Virus record (IMG/VR): IMGVR_UViG_3300017780_003104
Coordinates: 96,001-160,000 of that record
Direction: 5' to 3' (one strand)
Source of the DNA: a virus
Taxonomy: Duplodnaviria; Caudoviricetes
DNA: 64,000 bases
Shown here: positions 5,436-63,637 of the stretch, in pieces
Layout of the letters: every line of letters begins with the position of its first letter
Position numbering within the stretch: position 1 is the stretch's first letter
Notes under the pieces: model-generated
What the model was told of the DNA's origin: nothing
The model's database searches: none
Seen by the model: the letters and a program-made list of their open reading frames with translations, nothing else
Position numbers and translations under genes: made by a program

Positions 5436-6220
5436 TATTATCAATTCCAAGCTTATCTGAAGAATGTAATATAAACGTATCGGAATTCACATTAGAGGAT
5501 TTCAGGAATATATCATTCCTGATCGAACAGAATAATGATAATGAATTATATAAGTTTCTAATATCTAAAATAGAGACTCCATGCAATGCATATGATAAAT
5601 TCTATGTTCTTTTTAAAATGAGAATATTATTAGTAAATGAAAATATATCATTTAATAATGGAAGAGCTAATATAAAAGTAAATTTAAAATCTTGGGATAA
5701 TACGATTTTAGATAACTATAAAGATATCAAAAAGGATATAATATTTGAGGATTTTATAGCAACAGTGAATTACCCAGAGCATATGATGTACGATAATTAT
5801 GATGATTGTGTAATGGGATGTATTGCAAAAATTTCATATAAAGGTAGAGACATTAAATTCTTCGGATTGGATAAAACTGAAAAGCTTTCAATTTTGGAGA
5901 GAATACCACCATCGTTATATATTTCAATTAAGGACTATATAACTGAACATCGCATGGATAGGTTAATTGTAATGGAGTCTAAATTAGATTTACCAGAAAT
6001 CGATATAAATATTTTCAATAATAATGCATACGAATTATTAAAAATATTATATAATTACTATAAGTATGACGATATATTAGAATTGATATTTATGCTAAGT
6101 CGAAAAATCAATGATATTGGGTATTTGAATAGTAGAAATCCAAGAGATTTGGACCTTTTAATACAAATATATTCAGAAGATGTTGAAAAAACCTCCCATG
6201 ATAGTAAATCATATATATGA
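5432..6220 (+). CDS. Probable baseplate hub assembly protein (gp26/gp51-like)
   Basis: Position in the baseplate block and acidic composition; weak family assignment. Confidence 0.35.
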   Translation: MILSIPSLSEECNINVSEFTLEDFRNISFLIEQNNDNELYKFLISKIETPCNAYDKFYVLFKMRILLVNENISFNNGRANIKVNLKSWDNTILDNYKDIKKDIIFEDFIATVNYPEHMMYDNYDDCVMGCIAKISYKGRDIKFFGLDKTEKLSILERIPPSLYISIKDYITEHRMDRLIVMESKLDLPEIDINIFNNNAYELLKILYNYYKYDDILELIFMLSRKINDIGYLNSRNPRDLDLLIQIYSEDVEKTSHDSKSYI

Positions 6221-36243: not shown

Positions 36244-36267
36244 TTAAAACCGAACTATAATAGCGGC

Positions 36268-38230: not shown

Positions 38231-38677
38231 ATGATTACGAAAATTAATGATGAATTGAAACAGGCAATGCGCGACAAGAACACGACTAAGTTGAATGTTC
38301 TTCGCGCATTGAAAACAGCTATTATGAATGCTTCTCTACAGAAGGGTAACGTAAATGAACCGTTATCGGAAGTTGAGGTTATTGGTATTATTAGGAAACA
38401 ACTATCACAACGACAAGATTCTATAGCTCAATTTGTTACTGCACAACGTAATGATTTAATTGCTACAGAAGAAGCAGAAGTAGAAGTCCTCAAAGAGTTT
38501 ATACCAGAGGATTTGTCGGATTTACAGTTAGAAACATACATCATCAATACAATTTCTGAGTTAGGTGCTACTAGTAAAAAGGATATGGGGAACGTTATCA
38601 AACGGGTTGCTCATATTGTTAATGGTCGTGCTGATAATAAGAAAATATCTAAAATGGTGGGTGAGAAATTACAATGA
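38231..38677 (+). CDS. GatB/YqeY-domain protein
   Basis: LKQAMRDKN...LRALKT, RQDSIAQF..AQR.DL and KDMGNVIK. Confidence 0.9.
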   Translation: MITKINDELKQAMRDKNTTKLNVLRALKTAIMNASLQKGNVNEPLSEVEVIGIIRKQLSQRQDSIAQFVTAQRNDLIATEEAEVEVLKEFIPEDLSDLQLETYIINTISELGATSKKDMGNVIKRVAHIVNGRADNKKISKMVGEKLQ

Positions 38678-38967
38678 AATATATCCTCTTTCTTAATAAA
38701 GCATGGGGGGTTGATTTCATGTTAATCCGAAGACTTGAACGTGAAAAAATTGAGTATGATTATGTATCCTTATCTGATGAAGGACATGTGGACACCGAGT
38801 TGTATACTAAGTATGGGATAAGATCTACACCTTGTCTTTTGATTCTTGACAACGATGAGGTGAGTGATAAACTCAGTTCAACAGACGAAATCGTAGAATA
38901 TTTAAAAAATGTACAAAATACTAAAATTCCCGTGGGAACAGAGGACCAAACACTTCTGGGCAAGTGA
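38674..38967 (+). CDS. Thioredoxin/glutaredoxin-fold protein lacking CxxC
   Basis: YDYVSL...KYGIRSTPCLLI; KAWG sits where CxxC is expected. Confidence 0.55.
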   Translation: MKYILFLNKAWGVDFMLIRRLEREKIEYDYVSLSDEGHVDTELYTKYGIRSTPCLLILDNDEVSDKLSSTDEIVEYLKNVQNTKIPVGTEDQTLLGK

Positions 38968-39568
38968 TTGGCATAACTTCCATGACCCTAAAACTTGGAC
39001 TTCCCCTATTTGGGAAATGCGGGGATATAGCAATGCTGAAGAGGCATTAGAACAAACTCTCAGGACAACCAATGAAAAGGTTGGTGTGGATGATACCTTG
39101 TGGTATCTTGGTGATGGATTTCTTAATGCCACAGATGATCAATGCATTAATTGGTTGAGTAGAGTGAATTGCCAAAATATTTACTATTTGTTTGGTAATC
39201 ACGAATCCAATATGTATAGGATCTATAAGGAACAGGTCGCGGAACAATATGGGATTGGTGATGCTGAGATTTATCCCTTGAAGTATAAGAATGTCACATT
39301 CTTAGGAAATCATCAAGAAATTCAAATTGGTAAACAGATGATTACCATGAATCATTTCCCTTTAAGAATTTGGCACAAGGATAACCGTAGTGCTTGGATG
39401 CTTAGTGGGCATTCCCACTTACAAGATAAAGGTCGTAGACCAGATGCACCTTTTCAAAAAGGTCTTGATTGTGGTTGTGATTATAAAGTGGTGTGGAGTT
39501 TTTTGGAAATTGAAGATGTAATGTCAACCAAATCGATTCAAATTTTAGACCATAATAGGACTAGTTAA
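38909..39568 (+). CDS. Calcineurin-like metallophosphoesterase (RNA-repair-associated type)
   Basis: ASDWH..H, YLGD, FGNHE, NHFP and GHSH. Confidence 0.85.
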   Translation: MYKILKFPWEQRTKHFWASDWHNFHDPKTWTSPIWEMRGYSNAEEALEQTLRTTNEKVGVDDTLWYLGDGFLNATDDQCINWLSRVNCQNIYYLFGNHESNMYRIYKEQVAEQYGIGDAEIYPLKYKNVTFLGNHQEIQIGKQMITMNHFPLRIWHKDNRSAWMLSGHSHLQDKGRRPDAPFQKGLDCGCDYKVVWSFLEIEDVMSTKSIQILDHNRTS

Positions 39569-39570
39569 AT

Positions 39571-39792
39571 ATGACAGATGATGAATATGAAATGCGAATG
39601 GGTAAAGTCCGTAACAAGATGACGCAATTAAGAGAGGTTGAGAATTCTATGGAATCGACATTTCCAGATATTGACATTTCAAAAGAGTGGCGTAAACTGG
39701 CTTTAGAAGTAGAGGACATGATAAATGAAATCGAAGTGGATGATTTTCTCGTAAATGGTGCGGGAAATACTAGTATAGATATAATAGAATAA
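39571..39792 (+). CDS. Hypothetical coiled-coil protein
   Basis: 73-aa ORF. Confidence 0.55.
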   Translation: MTDDEYEMRMGKVRNKMTQLREVENSMESTFPDIDISKEWRKLALEVEDMINEIEVDDFLVNGAGNTSIDIIE

Positions 39793-39801
39793 CAGAATAA
39801 T

Positions 39802-40032
39802 ATGAACGTAAATAAGCAAAAAAACAAACAGTGGATGAGAAATCGTGATCAATTGAAAAACCCAAAGGTATTCAATGTAACTATGGTTCGTAATCCAGAT
39901 GGAACATTCCACATGATTGGTGGGCAGAGTAAGGTTCTTGTTCGCAAGAATCAACACTCTAGCGAATGGGTAAACGTTGATACACGCGATCTTACTTGTG
40001 AGATGCGTAATAGTCGAATCTCTTCTTTCTAA
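39802..40032 (+). CDS. Hypothetical basic protein directly upstream of an ncRNA cluster
   Basis: 76-aa ORF. Confidence 0.6.
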   Translation: MNVNKQKNKQWMRNRDQLKNPKVFNVTMVRNPDGTFHMIGGQSKVLVRKNQHSSEWVNVDTRDLTCEMRNSRISSF

Positions 40033-40043
40033 GAAGAGATTAT

Positions 40044-40108
40044 AGAACCGAAGCAATAACACTGATAAAGTTAAGGTGCTTTTTCACCATTCGATATGGT
40101 GCGGTTCT
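40044..40108 (+). ncRNA. D-armless tRNA-like RNA with an Ile(GAU)-type anticodon loop
   Basis: Acceptor AGAACCG/CGGTTCT; T-arm CACCA-TTCGATA-TGGTG; AAGCA/TGCTT plus TAAC/GTTA stems leading to a CTGATAA loop. Confidence 0.6.
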
Positions 40109-40112
40109 CTAT

Positions 40113-40250
40113 TGTGGTGGGGAAGCAGTTCCCCCTAGTAGGTAATGAGACTTAGCTCTTAATGGTGAAGACCGATAATAATAACGTTTAAACATCGGGA
40201 TAAACTACAGACGCATCTATTAAGAGTTTCTTGCGGATAAGTCTACCACA
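40113..40250 (+). ncRNA. Multi-stem structured RNA, unknown class
   Basis: TGTGGT/ACCACA, GGGGAA/TTCCCC, AGACTTA/TAAGTCT, AGCTCTTAAT/ATTAAGAGTT and CCGAT/ATCGG. Confidence 0.6.
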
Positions 40251-40255
40251 TTAAT

Positions 40256-40394
40256 TTTAAGGAAGTCCAAATAGGTAGCGGTTACACTCAAGCGCGATGA
40301 GTGTGAGAGAAAAGAATGACAATACTCTTAGTATTATATCAACTTTCGAAACGGTGAAAATCGTAAATTGCGGGTTCAAGTCCCGCTCCTTAAA
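40256..40394 (+). ncRNA. Enlarged tRNA-like RNA
   Basis: Terminal TTTAAGGA/TCCTTAAA; T-arm GCGGG-TTCAAGT-CCCGC; 9-bp TTACACTCA/TGAGTGTGA hairpin with a 7-nt loop. Confidence 0.65.
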
Positions 40395-40398
40395 TCTT

Positions 40399-40606
40399 TG
40401 AAGTGTCGATGTTGAAGGAAACATATCGAAGTTTGTAAGATAGTTATGGAAAGGCGCATGGCCGAACCACTAAGAAAGTTGAGAAATCTTAACTAGGTTG
40501 GTAGCCTAGACTTACCATGTAGCCCATACGGAGTAATTGTCTAAACCTAATCTCGCCAGAGAAAAGTTACGGACTCCATAGTTGGTATCAAGCCCAACAC
40601 ACTTCA
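40399..40606 (+). ncRNA. Enlarged tRNA-like RNA with a multi-helix insert
   Basis: Acceptor GAAGTGT/ACACTTC; D-like ATGTT/AACAT; T-like GTTGG-TATCAAGC-CCAAC; internal TATGG/CCATA, CATGG/CCATG, CTAGG/CCTAG and GGAGT/ACTCC. Confidence 0.6.
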
Positions 40607-40634
40607 TAATTTTTAATTAAAACCGAACTATAAT

Positions 40635-41066
40635 TTGGTTATGAAACGAGACGAGTTACAAAAAATTCTAAGAGCATATATGGAAGAACATGGTGCTATG
40701 GAATTTCTATGGACTGTTGATGATGAACTTCTACGTCCAACTATTCATAAGAATAGACATGAAATGATTTGTTCGACTGGAGATTTTAGAGGTAACTTTG
40801 ATTATGATCGTGGGTTCTTGGTAGTTTCCATTTCAGTATATTGGGAAAGGGATGAATTATATTCCGTTAATATGCCTATTTTCAATATCGATGATGGTAT
40901 TTGGAGAGCTGTTTCTAAGAATTTTGACACTAAAGAAGAGGCTCAAGAATTAGCAGATAAAGTGGCTTCAGGTTTTGTTAAAAACTTTGGAACTAAGCTT
41001 CCAACCGAAGATGAACTAAATGAATTTCTTCGTCCCTTTGGTATGTATGGTCATTCAGAAGGTTAA
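40635..41066 (+). CDS. Hypothetical protein
   Basis: Motif-headed; the ATG at 40641 is the likely start. Confidence 0.65.
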   Translation: MVMKRDELQKILRAYMEEHGAMEFLWTVDDELLRPTIHKNRHEMICSTGDFRGNFDYDRGFLVVSISVYWERDELYSVNMPIFNIDDGIWRAVSKNFDTKEEAQELADKVASGFVKNFGTKLPTEDELNEFLRPFGMYGHSEG

Positions 41067-41090
41067 TTAAAACCGAAGTATAGTAGTGAT

Positions 41091-41324
41091 ATGAAAATCA
41101 TCACCACACGCCTTAGAGTCATGCGATACAATTATCGAAATGATTGGAAAGCTGTTCAAATTCTACTCAAATATTATTATATTTTTGGCTTTAAATTTTT
41201 CGAAGTAGAATTAGATAGGGAAGATGTTCCAAGGCATGTGGTTCTTGCCAATGCATGTTTTGGCGATACGAGTGGATGGACTTCAAAATTTATGCCCTTT
41301 GAAAAAGGAGGATGGAAAGACTAA
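41091..41324 (+). CDS. Hypothetical protein
   Basis: Motif-headed. Confidence 0.6.
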   Translation: MKIITTRLRVMRYNYRNDWKAVQILLKYYYIFGFKFFEVELDREDVPRHVVLANACFGDTSGWTSKFMPFEKGGWKD

Positions 41325-54673: not shown

Positions 54674-56329
54674 ATGTTTGAGAATAAAAGAAACGCAGAA
54701 GTCGTGACTGTTAAATCAGTTACTCGTAAGGAAGTTAACGCATTCCTAAACAATGCTAAAGCAGAATCATCCAAGACTCGTTCTGGTAACGGGGCATTGA
54801 AATTCAGTTCAAGTGGTGATTCGTTTACCGATCAGTTTACTAAGGCTGGTAAGTATAAGGAACCTCGTAAGTTCTCTCAAATCGCACAAGATTGTGAAAT
54901 GTTGTGGGGTGAAGACCCTCTCAAGTGTGTGAAGTTCGCATTGTTTCTTCGTACTATTCCTCGCGTAGTTAATCTTCCTGATGGAAGTAAGACTGAACTT
55001 CCTCAAAAGGGAACCGAGTTGAAGCATGAAGCAATTATGCGTATGCTTTGGTTGAGTGATAAGTCTCCTCAAGCATTCTGGAATAACATTCTATTGTTTG
55101 TTTCTCTTGGATCTTGGCACGATGTTTTCACTATGCTTCAATATGATCTTAGCTACAACGGTTGGAATAATCGTAAGCTTGATTGGGATAAGTTTGGTGA
55201 GTTGATTCTTGCTGGTCTTAACAATAAGAACACCTGTGATCTTATTAAGAAGTATCTTCCTCAAATCAAGTCTCGTAGTCAAGCTACGACTATTGATGCT
55301 CAATCCAACAATGCTATTGCTAAGTGGATTTGCTCTCTAGTCTTTGGTAACAAGGAAAGCGCATCTTCATACAAGGCTTATCGTAAGATCAAGACTAGTG
55401 GAACCGCGCATGATTGGCAAAAGCTTATCTCCCAAAAGAGAATGAGTGAATTGGATTTCAATAAAATTCATGGTCGTGCTCTATCAATTCTTGTTAAGAG
55501 TAAGTTCTTAAAGAACCAAGGACTTAGCGATAAGTATGCATCTTGGATTACTGCACCTACCACCAAGGAAGTTAAGTATACTGGATTCGTCCATGAACTC
55601 TTCGAAGGTAACTGGAAGAACGATAAGAACAACGAAGCAACTATCAATAAGCAATTCGATACTCTTGTTCAAAAGGCAAGAACTAATGAAGTTACTGATT
55701 TGATTGTCGTTCGTGATACTTCTGGATCGATGTCTTCAATTTGTCCCGGCACTAAGTCTTCATGTCTTGATGTTGGAAAGGCAATCGCTCTATACTTTAG
55801 TGAATTCCTTCAAGGAACCTTTGCGGGTCATTGGATTGAATTCAACTCTGATGCTAAACTTCAAAAATGGGTTGGTCAAACTCCCGTTGATAAGTGGAAG
55901 AATGATAAGTCAAGCTTTTATGGTGGAACTAACTTTCAAAGTGTTGTTAATCTTCTCGCTAAGATGAAGAAAGAGGGAACACCTGAAAGTGATTTCCCTA
56001 GCGGTATCCTTTGCATTTCCGATGCAGAATTCAATCCTACTTCATTAGGTAAAACTAATGTTGAGACTGCGTTGACTACTCTTCGTAATGCTGGATTCTC
56101 CAAGGCTTATGTTGATAACTTTGTGATTATTCTTTGGAACCTTCAAAATAGTTATTATGGTAAAGGGTCTGGTGAAAAGTTTGAGACTGGTAAAGAAGTA
56201 AACAACGTTTACTATCTGGGTGGGTATAGTGCCTCCGCAGTTAGTTTCCTTTCAGCTAAGATCAAGACAACCTATGATCTAATCAACGAGTGTCTTAATC
56301 AGGAAGTTTTGAATATGGTTGAGATTTAA
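54674..56329 (+). CDS. Ro60/TROVE-like (DUF2828-type) RNA-binding protein with a C-terminal vWA domain
   Basis: Helical N-terminus (KFALFLR, GSWHD, KYLP) and vWA MIDAS elements VVRDTSGSM, GGTNF and ISDAEF; TTGACA-16-TAAGAT-N6-ATG upstream. Confidence 0.72.
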   Translation: MFENKRNAEVVTVKSVTRKEVNAFLNNAKAESSKTRSGNGALKFSSSGDSFTDQFTKAGKYKEPRKFSQIAQDCEMLWGEDPLKCVKFALFLRTIPRVVNLPDGSKTELPQKGTELKHEAIMRMLWLSDKSPQAFWNNILLFVSLGSWHDVFTMLQYDLSYNGWNNRKLDWDKFGELILAGLNNKNTCDLIKKYLPQIKSRSQATTIDAQSNNAIAKWICSLVFGNKESASSYKAYRKIKTSGTAHDWQKLISQKRMSELDFNKIHGRALSILVKSKFLKNQGLSDKYASWITAPTTKEVKYTGFVHELFEGNWKNDKNNEATINKQFDTLVQKARTNEVTDLIVVRDTSGSMSSICPGTKSSCLDVGKAIALYFSEFLQGTFAGHWIEFNSDAKLQKWVGQTPVDKWKNDKSSFYGGTNFQSVVNLLAKMKKEGTPESDFPSGILCISDAEFNPTSLGKTNVETALTTLRNAGFSKAYVDNFVIILWNLQNSYYGKGSGEKFETGKEVNNVYYLGGYSASAVSFLSAKIKTTYDLINECLNQEVLNMVEI

Positions 56330-56918
56330 ATATCTTAAACTTTCTATCTAAAAAGAGAGTGGAGTCTTTGTAAATAAAGTTTCCGATGCGACCAACTTTA
56401 TCTAGAATCAATAGACAAGCCGACTGATTTGGAAAAATTTACAATGACAATAATAACAGCAAAATTAGAAGAGGTTGACAAATCTAAATTTCATGATTAA
56501 ATAAAGATCCGATGAGGTTTCGGTAGCTTCCTATGGCGAACAAATAAAACTACCAATAAGATTGCTTCAGCAAATATATTTTTATTTAAGGAAAAACAAA
56601 AGCAATCTGATAAGAGGACAAACTACAAATACAAAAAATCAAACGTCCTCTGATAAGAATAAGTAACAGCAAAAACAATAAAAAATAAAAGCAAATATGC
56701 TAAACGATGAAAGTCGTCCGGGTATCCTCACCATATTAGAGGTTGTAATATGGAGCTTAGAAGGGAGTCAATCTTAACTTATTCTGATAAAGTCATAAAC
56801 TGCAAATAAAAATACTATTATGCAAAATAGCCTGTCGGTGGGTCCGAGGTAACTAAAACGGTTCGATTCCGTATCTATGACTTGCATAAAATCTCTTCAG
56901 CAAATAACGGAACGTAAA

Positions 56919-56996
56919 ACTCCCATACGTGTGGTTCAAATCCCGCTGCTCACACTTTATTAAAAAGTGGGTATAGCCAAGTGGTAAGGCAGGAGT
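56919..56996 (+). ncRNA. Circularly permuted tRNA-like domain (unit 5)
   Basis: 3' half ACTCC-CATAC-T arm-TGCTCAC precedes 5' half GTGGGTA-TAGCCAAGTGGTAAGGC-A-GGAGT. Confidence 0.8.
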
Positions 56997-57048
56997 CCAA
57001 AAACAATGAGATTTAATAGAAATACTCCAGCAAATAACGCAACAAGGA

Positions 57049-57127
57049 ACCGTGTGTCGAACGTTCGATTCGTTCTCTCCCACCATATAAGTAAAATGGG
57101 AGGTAGCTCAGTTGGTAGAGCAACGGT
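57049..57127 (+). ncRNA. Circularly permuted tRNA-like domain (unit 6)
   Basis: ACCGT-GTGTC-GAACG TTCGATT CGTTC-TCTCCCA-CCA precedes TGGGAGG-TAGCTCAGTTGGTAGAGC-A-ACGGT. Confidence 0.88.
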
Positions 57128-57462
57128 AAGCAAAAAACATAGTATTTCGATAGGATTATATTCAGCAAATATACTACTCAACTGTTAATTGAAAAAAGTA
57201 AAAGTAATCCGATAAGAATTTCAGCAGCATAATATCGTAACTATAACGACTCTAAGGTAGCTTAGGTTTGGGAAACCAATACGGCGATGGTAGATAGGTA
57301 AACTAAGTTCTTTATAGAATATGTAAACCCTACGGGACGAACGATTGAATATTTATATATTCTTTAATGTGTCAGTGAAAGATGAAATTCTGATAAAATT
57401 AGCAACAGCAAACCAAACAAAAATTTGACTTTTAATCAAACAATAAAATGCTAATTTGATAC

Positions 57463-63222: not shown

Positions 63223-63441
63223 ATGAAAAAGAGATACATTCGGTTCTGGCATGGGTTTAGCCCTAATGATAAATTAGTTCAAAAGATTGCCACCTTTTGC
63301 CATCTGGAATTACATGACGGTAAGGAGTTTTATGCATATGATGGATCATTAGATGATTTCGAAAAGCTATATAATAGTAAGTTCATCGTCTTTGATGATT
63401 ACATTGCAGTAACTCAACGCAATACATTTGGACAACGTTAA
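63223..63441 (+). CDS. Hypothetical protein
   Basis: TAA-T-ATG junction. Confidence 0.55.
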   Translation: MKKRYIRFWHGFSPNDKLVQKIATFCHLELHDGKEFYAYDGSLDDFEKLYNSKFIVFDDYIAVTQRNTFGQR

Positions 63442-63523
63442 AGTCCTAATTAAAATCGAAATATAATTACGAAATGATTACTCCATATCTAGTAATGTAA
63501 CATTTCTATTATAAATAACTTTT

Positions 63524-63562: not shown

Positions 63563-63637
63563 GGCATCGTAGCTCAATGGAAGAGCAACACCCTTCTAAG
63601 GTGTGGGTTGAAAGTTCGAGTCTTTCCGGTGTCACCA
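63563..63637 (+). tRNA. tRNA-Arg(UCU) with encoded CCA
   Basis: GGCATCG/CGGTGTC acceptor, GCTC/GAGC D-arm, ACACC-CTTCTAA-GGTGT anticodon arm, GAAAG-TTCGAGT-CTTTC T-arm, ACCA. Confidence 0.95.

Follow-up and report, generated by a model that had tools for sequence, protein, structure and literature searches.

Transfer RNA (tRNA)-like stable RNAs have been known in the phages T4 and T5 for decades without an assigned function. T4 encodes two, RNAC (species 1 RNA, 139 nucleotides [nt]) and RNAD (species 2, 119 nt), whose genes lie beside those of the T4 tRNAs and whose roles are unknown (PMC3014915; PMC9697503). In T5, RNA1 (144 nt) and RNA2 (125 nt) are annotated as "tRNA-like stable RNA with unknown functions" (AY543070). 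Two further systems are close to these. Bacterial Y RNAs of the YrlA type, which occur in Ro60-encoding phages, mimic tRNA; they have tRNA-like D and T arms but do not decode, and some are cut by RNase P and CCA-tailed (PMC4201824). In the engineered tRNA scaffold of Ponchon and Dardel, an RNA put in the place of the anticodon arm of a tRNA frame is correctly processed and protected from degradation in bacteria (PMC3753655). Here, we describe two adjacent RNA genes, termed R3 and R4, at positions 40256–40606 of a 64,000-nt stretch of viral DNA (hereafter, the window). The window corresponds to bases 96001–160000 of the IMG/VR record IMGVR_UViG_3300017780_003104, the genome of an uncultured lake phage (211.7 kilobases [kb], with terminal repeats).

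The original prediction had placed in this interval two enlarged tRNA-like RNAs of 139 and 208 nt with tRNA-style ends, and the predicted folds of R3 and R4 bear out the coordinates, the sizes and the ends. What, then, sets these RNAs apart from tRNAs? R3 and R4 cannot be modelled as tRNAs; they are non-decoding, conserved RNAs. ARAGORN reported no tRNA within 40256–40606, even with a relaxed threshold and in mitochondrial mode. A canonical anticodon arm has a stem of 5 base pairs (bp) and a 7-nt loop with U33 and a purine at position 37; the corresponding arm of R3 has a stem of 7–10 bp and, in the window copy, a G at position 33, and that of R4 is an 8–9-bp stem that opens into approximately 130 nt. 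An acceptor stacked on a T arm, a 7-nt T loop and a GG in the D loop were found in all six R3 copies (with an 8-bp acceptor) and in part in R4, the T-like loop of which has 8 nt. Neither ARAGORN nor Rfam detected a transfer-messenger RNA at the array; where such RNAs have a G3-U70 pair, R4 and the window copy of R3 have A-U as their third acceptor pair. As had been anticipated, no Rfam family matched 40256–40606 at gathering score or at E-values up to 10, in a search that covered the window and also the related contig L011.

Comparison with its relatives carries the case for the fold of R3. A covariance model was built from three copies and then used to find further relatives, which resulted in six distinct sequences including that of the window; the five relatives are from uncultured phages of the same clade. 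More distant phages gave full-length matches to the model at other genome positions, scoring 54.7 bits in G023, where R3 stands alone between two genes, and 46 bits in G018, G020 and G021. Across the six sequences, 99.4% of the paired alignment cells hold standard pairs, and 13 of the 32 pairs have changed on both sides. When the partner columns were slid as a control, only 33–44% were paired, and no shuffle reached the observed values. The folding z-score of R3 (−2.6) is modest when taken alone.

The 8-bp terminal helix of R3 continues directly into the 5-bp T stem, forming a 13-bp acceptor/T stack. Other parts vary within the family. The D stem has 2–3 bp in the window copy versus 4 bp in the distant copies, and the loop of the long arm reads AGCGCGA in the window (without U33), reads UUCGCGG in two copies, and comprises 9 nt in the distant ones. 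Most simply, R3 is a leucine-type (class II) tRNA frame that has lost decoding and gained an arm, because its D loop, its T arm and part of its acceptor resemble those of tRNA-Leu. The phage's own tRNA-Leu(UAA), located outside the window (G000:165917–165999, with G000 denoting the phage genome), shares with R3 its T arm and D-loop sequence as well as part of its acceptor, and both have a hairpin in the variable region. R3 departs from a class II tRNA-Leu in having no Leu anticodon, an arm of 7–10 bp in its place, an additional long hairpin, an 8-bp acceptor and an A at position 8; unlike such a tRNA, it is missed by both ARAGORN and the Rfam tRNA model. A match to the R3 model at 63327–63443 on the minus strand was rejected, as it lies inside a plus-strand open reading frame (ORF) and is without a T arm. 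Seven matches from the last DNA-pattern scan of viral contigs were also rejected by model, and BLAST searches with the array or with a distant R3 copy found nothing in GenBank phages or Escherichia coli genomes.

The proposed search for homologues, here made in related viral contigs, yielded the five relatives of R3 and found a single one of R4, in L011. The acceptor, D-like hairpin and T-like arm that had been said to frame the insert of R4 hold up: the frame pairs have probabilities of 0.8–1.0 in both known copies, and the terminal helix continues directly into the 5-bp stem of the T-like arm. The long stem in the anticodon-arm position (8–9 bp) pairs 40430–40437 with 40568–40575. As with R3, the folding z-score (−2.4) is modest alone. 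The claim of at least five helices in the insert stands in part. Five or more inner helices are indeed predicted, but two folds of the interior compete, and comparative support is found for one helix only, that at 40549–40563. In the consensus, the interior is a rod of approximately 27 bp with a three-way tip and with the variable hairpin as a side branch; the window copy on its own favours a different interior fold. A hairpin predicted at 40493–40509 has the dimensions of an anticodon stem-loop, with a 5-bp stem and a 7-nt loop in which position 2 is U and position 6 is a purine.

R4 and its L011 copy differ at 10 of 208 positions (95.2% identical). All but one of these differences fall in the variable hairpin and the tenth is in a loop of the consensus fold; outside the hairpin, the identity is 192/193. 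Elsewhere, the identity between the window and L011 is 70% for R3, 61% for R2, 80% for R1 and 71–73% for the two upstream genes, and the flanking genes are 70–73% identical in DNA and 70–72% in protein. The near-identity of R4 is due to very strong constraint or else to a recent transfer of this cassette from one phage to the other; under constraint or transfer alike, only the hairpin at 40549–40563 has been remodelled. Beyond L011, no homologue of R4 was found by BLAST or by the R4 model in 24–27 related phage records, nor by further pattern scans of viral contigs, metagenomes and genome contigs. The metagenome scan returned L011's own contig and five chance matches in GC-rich DNA. BLAST matches to the D-like hairpin in G018 and G021 were rejected because they lie inside coding sequence. 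A pairing between an R3 loop and R4 was dropped, as it is not kept in L011 and a further contig, L019, has R3 without R4.

Features of the RNA array and of the promoter-like motifs that bracket it (window positions)
Feature	Position	Strand	Basis and remarks
R3, whole gene, tRNA-framed RNA, 139 nt	40256–40394	+	Predicted fold; covariance model; covariation
R3 acceptor, 5′ strand	40256–40263	+	Pairs with 40387–40394; 8 pairs, 100% paired in 6 sequences, 4 changed on both sides
R3 acceptor, 3′ strand	40387–40394	+	No encoded CCA
R3 D-arm region, conserved GG, leucine-tRNA type	40264–40281	+	Aligns with D loops of phage tRNA-Leu(UAA) and T4 tRNA-Leu
R3 elongated "anticodon" arm, non-decoding loop	40282–40306	+	9 bp here, 7–10 bp in the family; 5 of 10 pairs changed on both sides
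R3 variable hairpin (first extra arm)	40318–40340	+	Present in 6 of 6 copies; length ~12–50 nt, sequence unalignable
R3 short conserved hairpin (second extra arm)	40351–40364	+	Class II variable-arm position; 5 pairs, 100% paired
R3 T arm, canonical 7-nt T loop	40370–40386	+	5-bp stem; 3 of 5 pairs changed on both sides; T-loop consensus in all copies
R4, whole gene, tRNA-framed RNA, 208 nt	40399–40606	+	Predicted fold; one homologue, in L011
R4 acceptor, 5′ strand	40399–40406	+	8 bp with 40599–40606; pair probability 1.0 for the inner six, ~0.54 for the outermost two, in both copies
R4 D-like hairpin, GG-containing loop	40407–40428	+	Pair probabilities 0.45–0.85
R4 long stem and enclosed ~130-nt insert, anticodon-arm position	40430–40575	+	Stem pair probability 0.8–0.9
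R4 anticodon-stem-loop-shaped hairpin	40493–40509	+	Predicted; probability 0.9 in the L011 copy, 0.1–0.5 in the window copy
R4 variable hairpin	40549–40563	+	9 of 10 differences from L011; three stem pairs swapped, fully compensated; one loop base differs
R4 T-like arm	40581–40598	+	5-bp stem, 8-nt loop (T loop + 1); pair probability 0.9–0.98; identical in both copies
R1, D-armless tRNA-like RNA, 65 nt	40044–40108	+	Three copies; 7 pairs changed on both sides (acceptor and T stems)
R2, multi-helix, terminal stem, no T arm	40113–40250	+	Two copies; 6 pairs changed on both sides
Promoter-like motif, nearest upstream of the array	36244–36261	+	Likely start of the transcript ending in the RNA array
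Promoter-like motif of the next gene	40617–40634	+	11 nt past R4

R3 and R4 are the last two of four structured RNAs that fill a gene-free gap of 600 nt, from the stop codon of a gene for a 76-residue protein (40032) to the start of the next gene (40641). All four (560 nt in total) lie on the plus strand, as do nearly all genes of the window, and the spacers between them are 4–5 nt long, like those of phage tRNA operons. Copies of R1 were also found at L011:882–946 and L019:3243–3304. The only ORF in the gap (40257–40424, minus strand) is not conserved in the relatives, and the length changes of the R3 variable hairpin are not multiples of three; R3 and R4 are thus non-coding. We assign them to the plus strand because their T-loop motifs and many G-U pairs fit that strand only and because the genes are also on it. 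A scan of the entire genome (212 kb) for enlarged frames of the acceptor-plus-T-arm type, for which 0.15 hits are expected per shuffled genome, found R3 and R4 adjacent to one another.

An 18-nt promoter-like motif, TTAAAACCGAAnTATAAT, has 31 copies in the window versus 0.57 expected by chance. It precedes many plus-strand genes (e.g., at 36244, 40617, 41067, 54604 and 63450) and is kept in L011 and L019. There is no copy between 36261 and 40617, nor is there a terminator-like site in 38500–41300. Because the last motif before the array is at 36244, the next one follows R4 by 11 nt, and no terminator intervenes, the array is probably the tail of a 4.4-kb transcript. This putative transcript also encodes a YqeY-like protein and a metallophosphoesterase, and a gene for an RNA ligase lies within 700 nt downstream. 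The suggested link of R3 and R4 to the repair enzymes is one of neighbourhood only: the YqeY-like, metallophosphoesterase and RNA ligase genes are within 1–2 kb of the array. Co-occurrence with RNA ligases is uninformative, since they are present in every relative checked, with or without R3.

The array contains no ordinary tRNA; the main tRNA cluster is located elsewhere in the genome. ARAGORN and Rfam found 22 tRNAs in total, among them a tRNA-Arg at 63563 in the window, and most of the 22 genes form a minus-strand cluster outside it (G000:165917–199183). Several exceed the usual length of tRNAs of their type (Met, 94 nt; Asn, 91 nt; Glu, 87 nt; Pro, 80 nt), and one has a CUA anticodon and looks like an amber suppressor. 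CCA is encoded in seven of the 22 tRNA genes; the other 15, like the RNAs of the array, are without it. The phage also encodes a protein of the CCA-adding/poly(A) polymerase family (PF01743; G000:183209–183574, in an ORF of 499 codons outside the window), and such a protein is found in four of the five relatives checked.

Are the members of the array inherited as a block? DNA-pattern scans gave one close contig, L011 (L017 and L022 denote this contig too), which is syntenic with the window: its phosphoesterase is 72% and its 76-residue protein 70% identical. In addition, an alignment of 37 homologues of the 76-residue protein was employed to retrieve 26 viral loci. The order of cassettes in the window is R1-R2-R3-R4. 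In L011, one extra RNA stands between R1 and R2 and two more stand between R2 and R3, which R4 follows, and in L019/L020, R1 and the first extra RNA are followed by R3 and then directly by a gene, with no R4. From these differences in content, the RNAs behave as separate cassettes, and array RNAs are swapped as such between related phages. The three extra cassettes of L011 (L011:456–645 and ~780–880) are absent from the window; one is an 80-nt tRNA-like RNA. Across the retrieved loci, the site after the gene for the 76-residue protein is a hot spot, and many phages have no gap there. L021 has a tRNA-Gly and a tRNA-like RNA at this site, L041 has an odd tRNA, and L043 has a run of seven tRNAs nearby. 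At the same site, L039 (3230–3460) and L071 (3205–3435) have a conserved RNA-like stretch of approximately 220 nt that has no Rfam match and is followed by a tRNA-Thr(UGU). L071, a phage-like contig, was binned with a metagenome-assembled genome of Flavobacterium, a weak hint at the host group. Locus searches with single proteins of the flanking genes gave relatives at 55% identity without the RNA gap.

We consider it fairly probable that R3 and R4 each specify a small, tRNA-framed RNA that does not decode and that they form, with R1 and R2, a four-cassette array at the end of an RNA-metabolism operon, in which the tRNA frame is the scaffold and the arms are the payload. From the arrangement and the folds, we infer how these RNAs would be transcribed, processed, stabilized and bound by any partner. 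Transcription would start at the promoter-like site at 36244 and give a long transcript that has the array as its tail. In every cassette, the tRNA-processing machinery would read the acceptor-plus-T-arm helix, with RNase P cutting at its 5′ side; each such cut would also free the 4–5-nt 3′ trailer of the preceding cassette for trimming. CCA might then be added, by a host enzyme or by the nucleotidyltransferase-family protein of the phage. The frame would serve for processing and stability, as in the engineered tRNA scaffold. The payload would be the enlarged arms, i.e., the long arm and the two extra arms of R3 and the approximately 130-nt rod of R4 with its variable hairpin, and it would most probably bind a protein that acts on tRNA or RNA.

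Several points weigh against this reading. A "scaffold plus payload" leaves the action of the payload unspecified. The acceptor/T stack of R3 has 13 bp versus the canonical 12, and position 8 is A instead of U; moreover, the alignment of R3 had been fitted to the model, and its six sequences include three that are close to each other. The frame of R4 shows no covariation, because its two copies are identical there, and its near-identity could come from a recent transfer of the cassette and not from constraint. Recognition of R4 by tRNA enzymes is also less certain, owing to the 8-nt T-like loop.

A more specific version of the payload's function would be that of decoys or sponges: the RNAs would offer tRNA-like surfaces to defence nucleases or to tRNA-modifying toxins, sparing the real tRNAs. 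We regard this as possible but unlikely. The array is set among tRNA and RNA-repair genes, and 7-nt loops that have U as their second base and a purine as their sixth occur in R1, in two of the three close R3 copies and in one R4 hairpin. Further, fast change in R4 is confined to one small hairpin, as would be expected of a specificity element. However, the long-arm loop of R3 is not kept as an anticodon mimic, given the missing U33 in the window and the 9-nt loops of the distant copies, and the look-alike hairpin of R4 is a prediction that is weak in the window copy. No target of a defence nuclease is known for the uncultured host, and the RNA ligases accompany every relative regardless of R3. 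One could go further and picture the array as a set of exchangeable, tRNA-scaffolded "bait" RNAs directed against tRNA-targeting host defences, with the R4 hairpin on its frozen 193-nt body as the specificity element; this we hold to be doubtful. Under that proposal, the leucine-tRNA top half of R3 may be charged or CCA-tagged and so enter the tRNA pathway without decoding.

Alternatively, the tRNA-like folds could be punctuation, solely directing RNase P cuts that end and stabilize the upstream mRNA, with the released RNAs being functionless. tRNA-like elements serve as punctuation in mitochondria and for some long non-coding RNAs, and the array stands at the end of an operon with no terminator. 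Yet one small tRNA-like fold would suffice for this purpose, and the window has four different cassettes totalling 560 nt. The 130-nt insert of R4 is almost invariant, and R3 keeps its extra arms also where it sits elsewhere in a genome, with different genes on either side. Punctuation alone is therefore improbable.

The original prediction further proposed a functional link of the RNAs to the Ro60 array, and this part is not supported. R3 and R4 would then be Y-RNA-like partners of the phage's Ro60-like protein, an idea that draws on the tRNA mimicry of YrlA (PMC4201824) and on the presence, in the same genome, of a Ro60-like gene followed by an RNA array with repeats. That gene is located at 54674–56329, 14 kb from R3 and R4 and not within 4 kb of them. 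The YrlA motif GNCGAAN0-1G (PMC4201824) is absent from R3, and the nearest stretch in R4 has an A for the first G of the motif. The topology of R3 and R4 is that of a normal rather than a permuted tRNA, neither matches an Rfam family, and the repeated motifs of the RNA array on the Ro60 side are absent from both. A six-frame search of the genome with the Pfam TROVE model did not match the Ro60-like protein; the protein itself was thus used to examine co-occurrence. The patterns of presence differ in both directions: the complete or near-complete genomes G018 and G023 have R3 without a Ro60-like gene, and the complete genome G009 has the gene without R3. Taken together, these data render a Ro60 partnership very improbable. 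Close homologues of the Ro60-like protein (76–85% identical) are encoded by G009 and G004, whereas G018 and G023 have none. A conserved loop heptamer of R1, CUGAUAA, recurs in the repeats of the RNA array beside the Ro60-like gene (56604–57417).

The least probable of the readings is that R3 and R4 are true tRNAs with inserts that are spliced out, for which a test had been proposed, or decaying tRNA pseudogenes: although the D and T arms of R3 resemble tRNA-Leu, the phage has several RNA ligases, and a tRNA-Leu of a related phage has a 44-nt anticodon-loop insert that is modelled as an intron, the intron mode of ARAGORN found nothing in the window's array even with a relaxed threshold, no group I intron was matched by Rfam, no tRNA splicing endonuclease (PF01974) is encoded in the genome, a 5-bp stem and a standard loop are not obtained by any cut of R3 or R4, and pseudogenes would not keep compensatory changes or 99.5% identity. 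The tRNA-Leu-like gene just mentioned (L056:1501–1632, minus strand; phage record G004) has its insert, a perfect hairpin, in the anticodon loop; ARAGORN models the gene as tRNA-Leu(CAA) with an intron at position 34, and a group I intron would be far larger than this insert. The endonuclease search covered the genome of the window alone.

What do R3 and R4 add to the tRNA-like stable RNAs of T4 and T5? They are two unrelated sequence families, one clearly built on a leucine-tRNA frame with two arms added and the other carrying a 130-nt rod in place of the anticodon arm, in an array that gains and loses cassettes from one sister phage to another. The tRNA frame may accordingly be a device that phages use generally to make stable small RNAs. 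The variable hairpin of R4, on its near-invariant body, is a concrete element to mutate. Should the doubtful bait proposal be true, the 50-year-old puzzle of T4 RNAC and T5 RNA1 would be answered, with tRNA frames as carriers of anti-defence RNAs. The value of the locus is limited by the uncultured phage, by the two known copies of R4 and by the lack of anything pointing to a target.

The comparison with the described systems places R3 and R4 among them. The genes for T4 RNAC and RNAD are on the same strand as the tRNA genes and a few nt from them, the same tandem layout that R3 and R4 have with tRNA-type genes, although the window's array, unlike the T4 setting, is without an ordinary tRNA. 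RNAC is of the same size as R3. Its predicted fold has a terminal helix stacked on a canonical T arm, with a long arm and a single extra hairpin ahead of the T arm, and has no D arm; R3 differs in its Leu-type D arm and in the number of its extra arms, which is two. In size, R4 far exceeds either T4 RNA. When cmsearch was run without filters on the T4 tRNA region, the R3 and R4 models gave only T-arm fragments or noise at rnaC (8–10 bits), and the pairwise alignment was unconvincing. In T5 RNA1 and RNA2, too, the middle of a tRNA frame is enlarged. RNA1 resembles R3 in its leucine-tRNA-type D loop but has one variable arm versus the two extra arms of R3; the D-like hairpin of RNA2, with its G-rich loop, resembles that of R4, but the insert of R4 is two to three times larger than those of the T5 RNAs and its T-like loop is one of 8 nt. 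Neither the R3 nor the R4 model gave a full-length match at the two T5 loci (L057:3502–3645 and 5960–6084), and what is shared with the T5 RNAs is confined to the D-loop motif and the overall layout.

The YrlA RNAs end in the Ro-binding stem and their "acceptor" is a closed stem-loop, whereas in R3 and R4 the ends themselves form the acceptor. The engineered tRNA scaffold, with acceptor, D and T arms kept and a foreign RNA substituted for the anticodon stem-loop, has exactly the layout of R4; the scaffold is man-made, and we infer that phage RNAs may exploit the same principle. The original prediction had spoken of a new class of tRNA-framed RNAs. Tellingly for that claim, R3 and R4 are indeed tRNA-framed and conserved, but RNAs of this kind have long been on record as T4 RNAC and RNAD and T5 RNA1 and RNA2, for which Rfam has no family. 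Sharing the build of the T4 and T5 RNAs, with no detectable homology to them and no Rfam family, R3 and R4 are best described as new sequence families of an old, unexplained kind.

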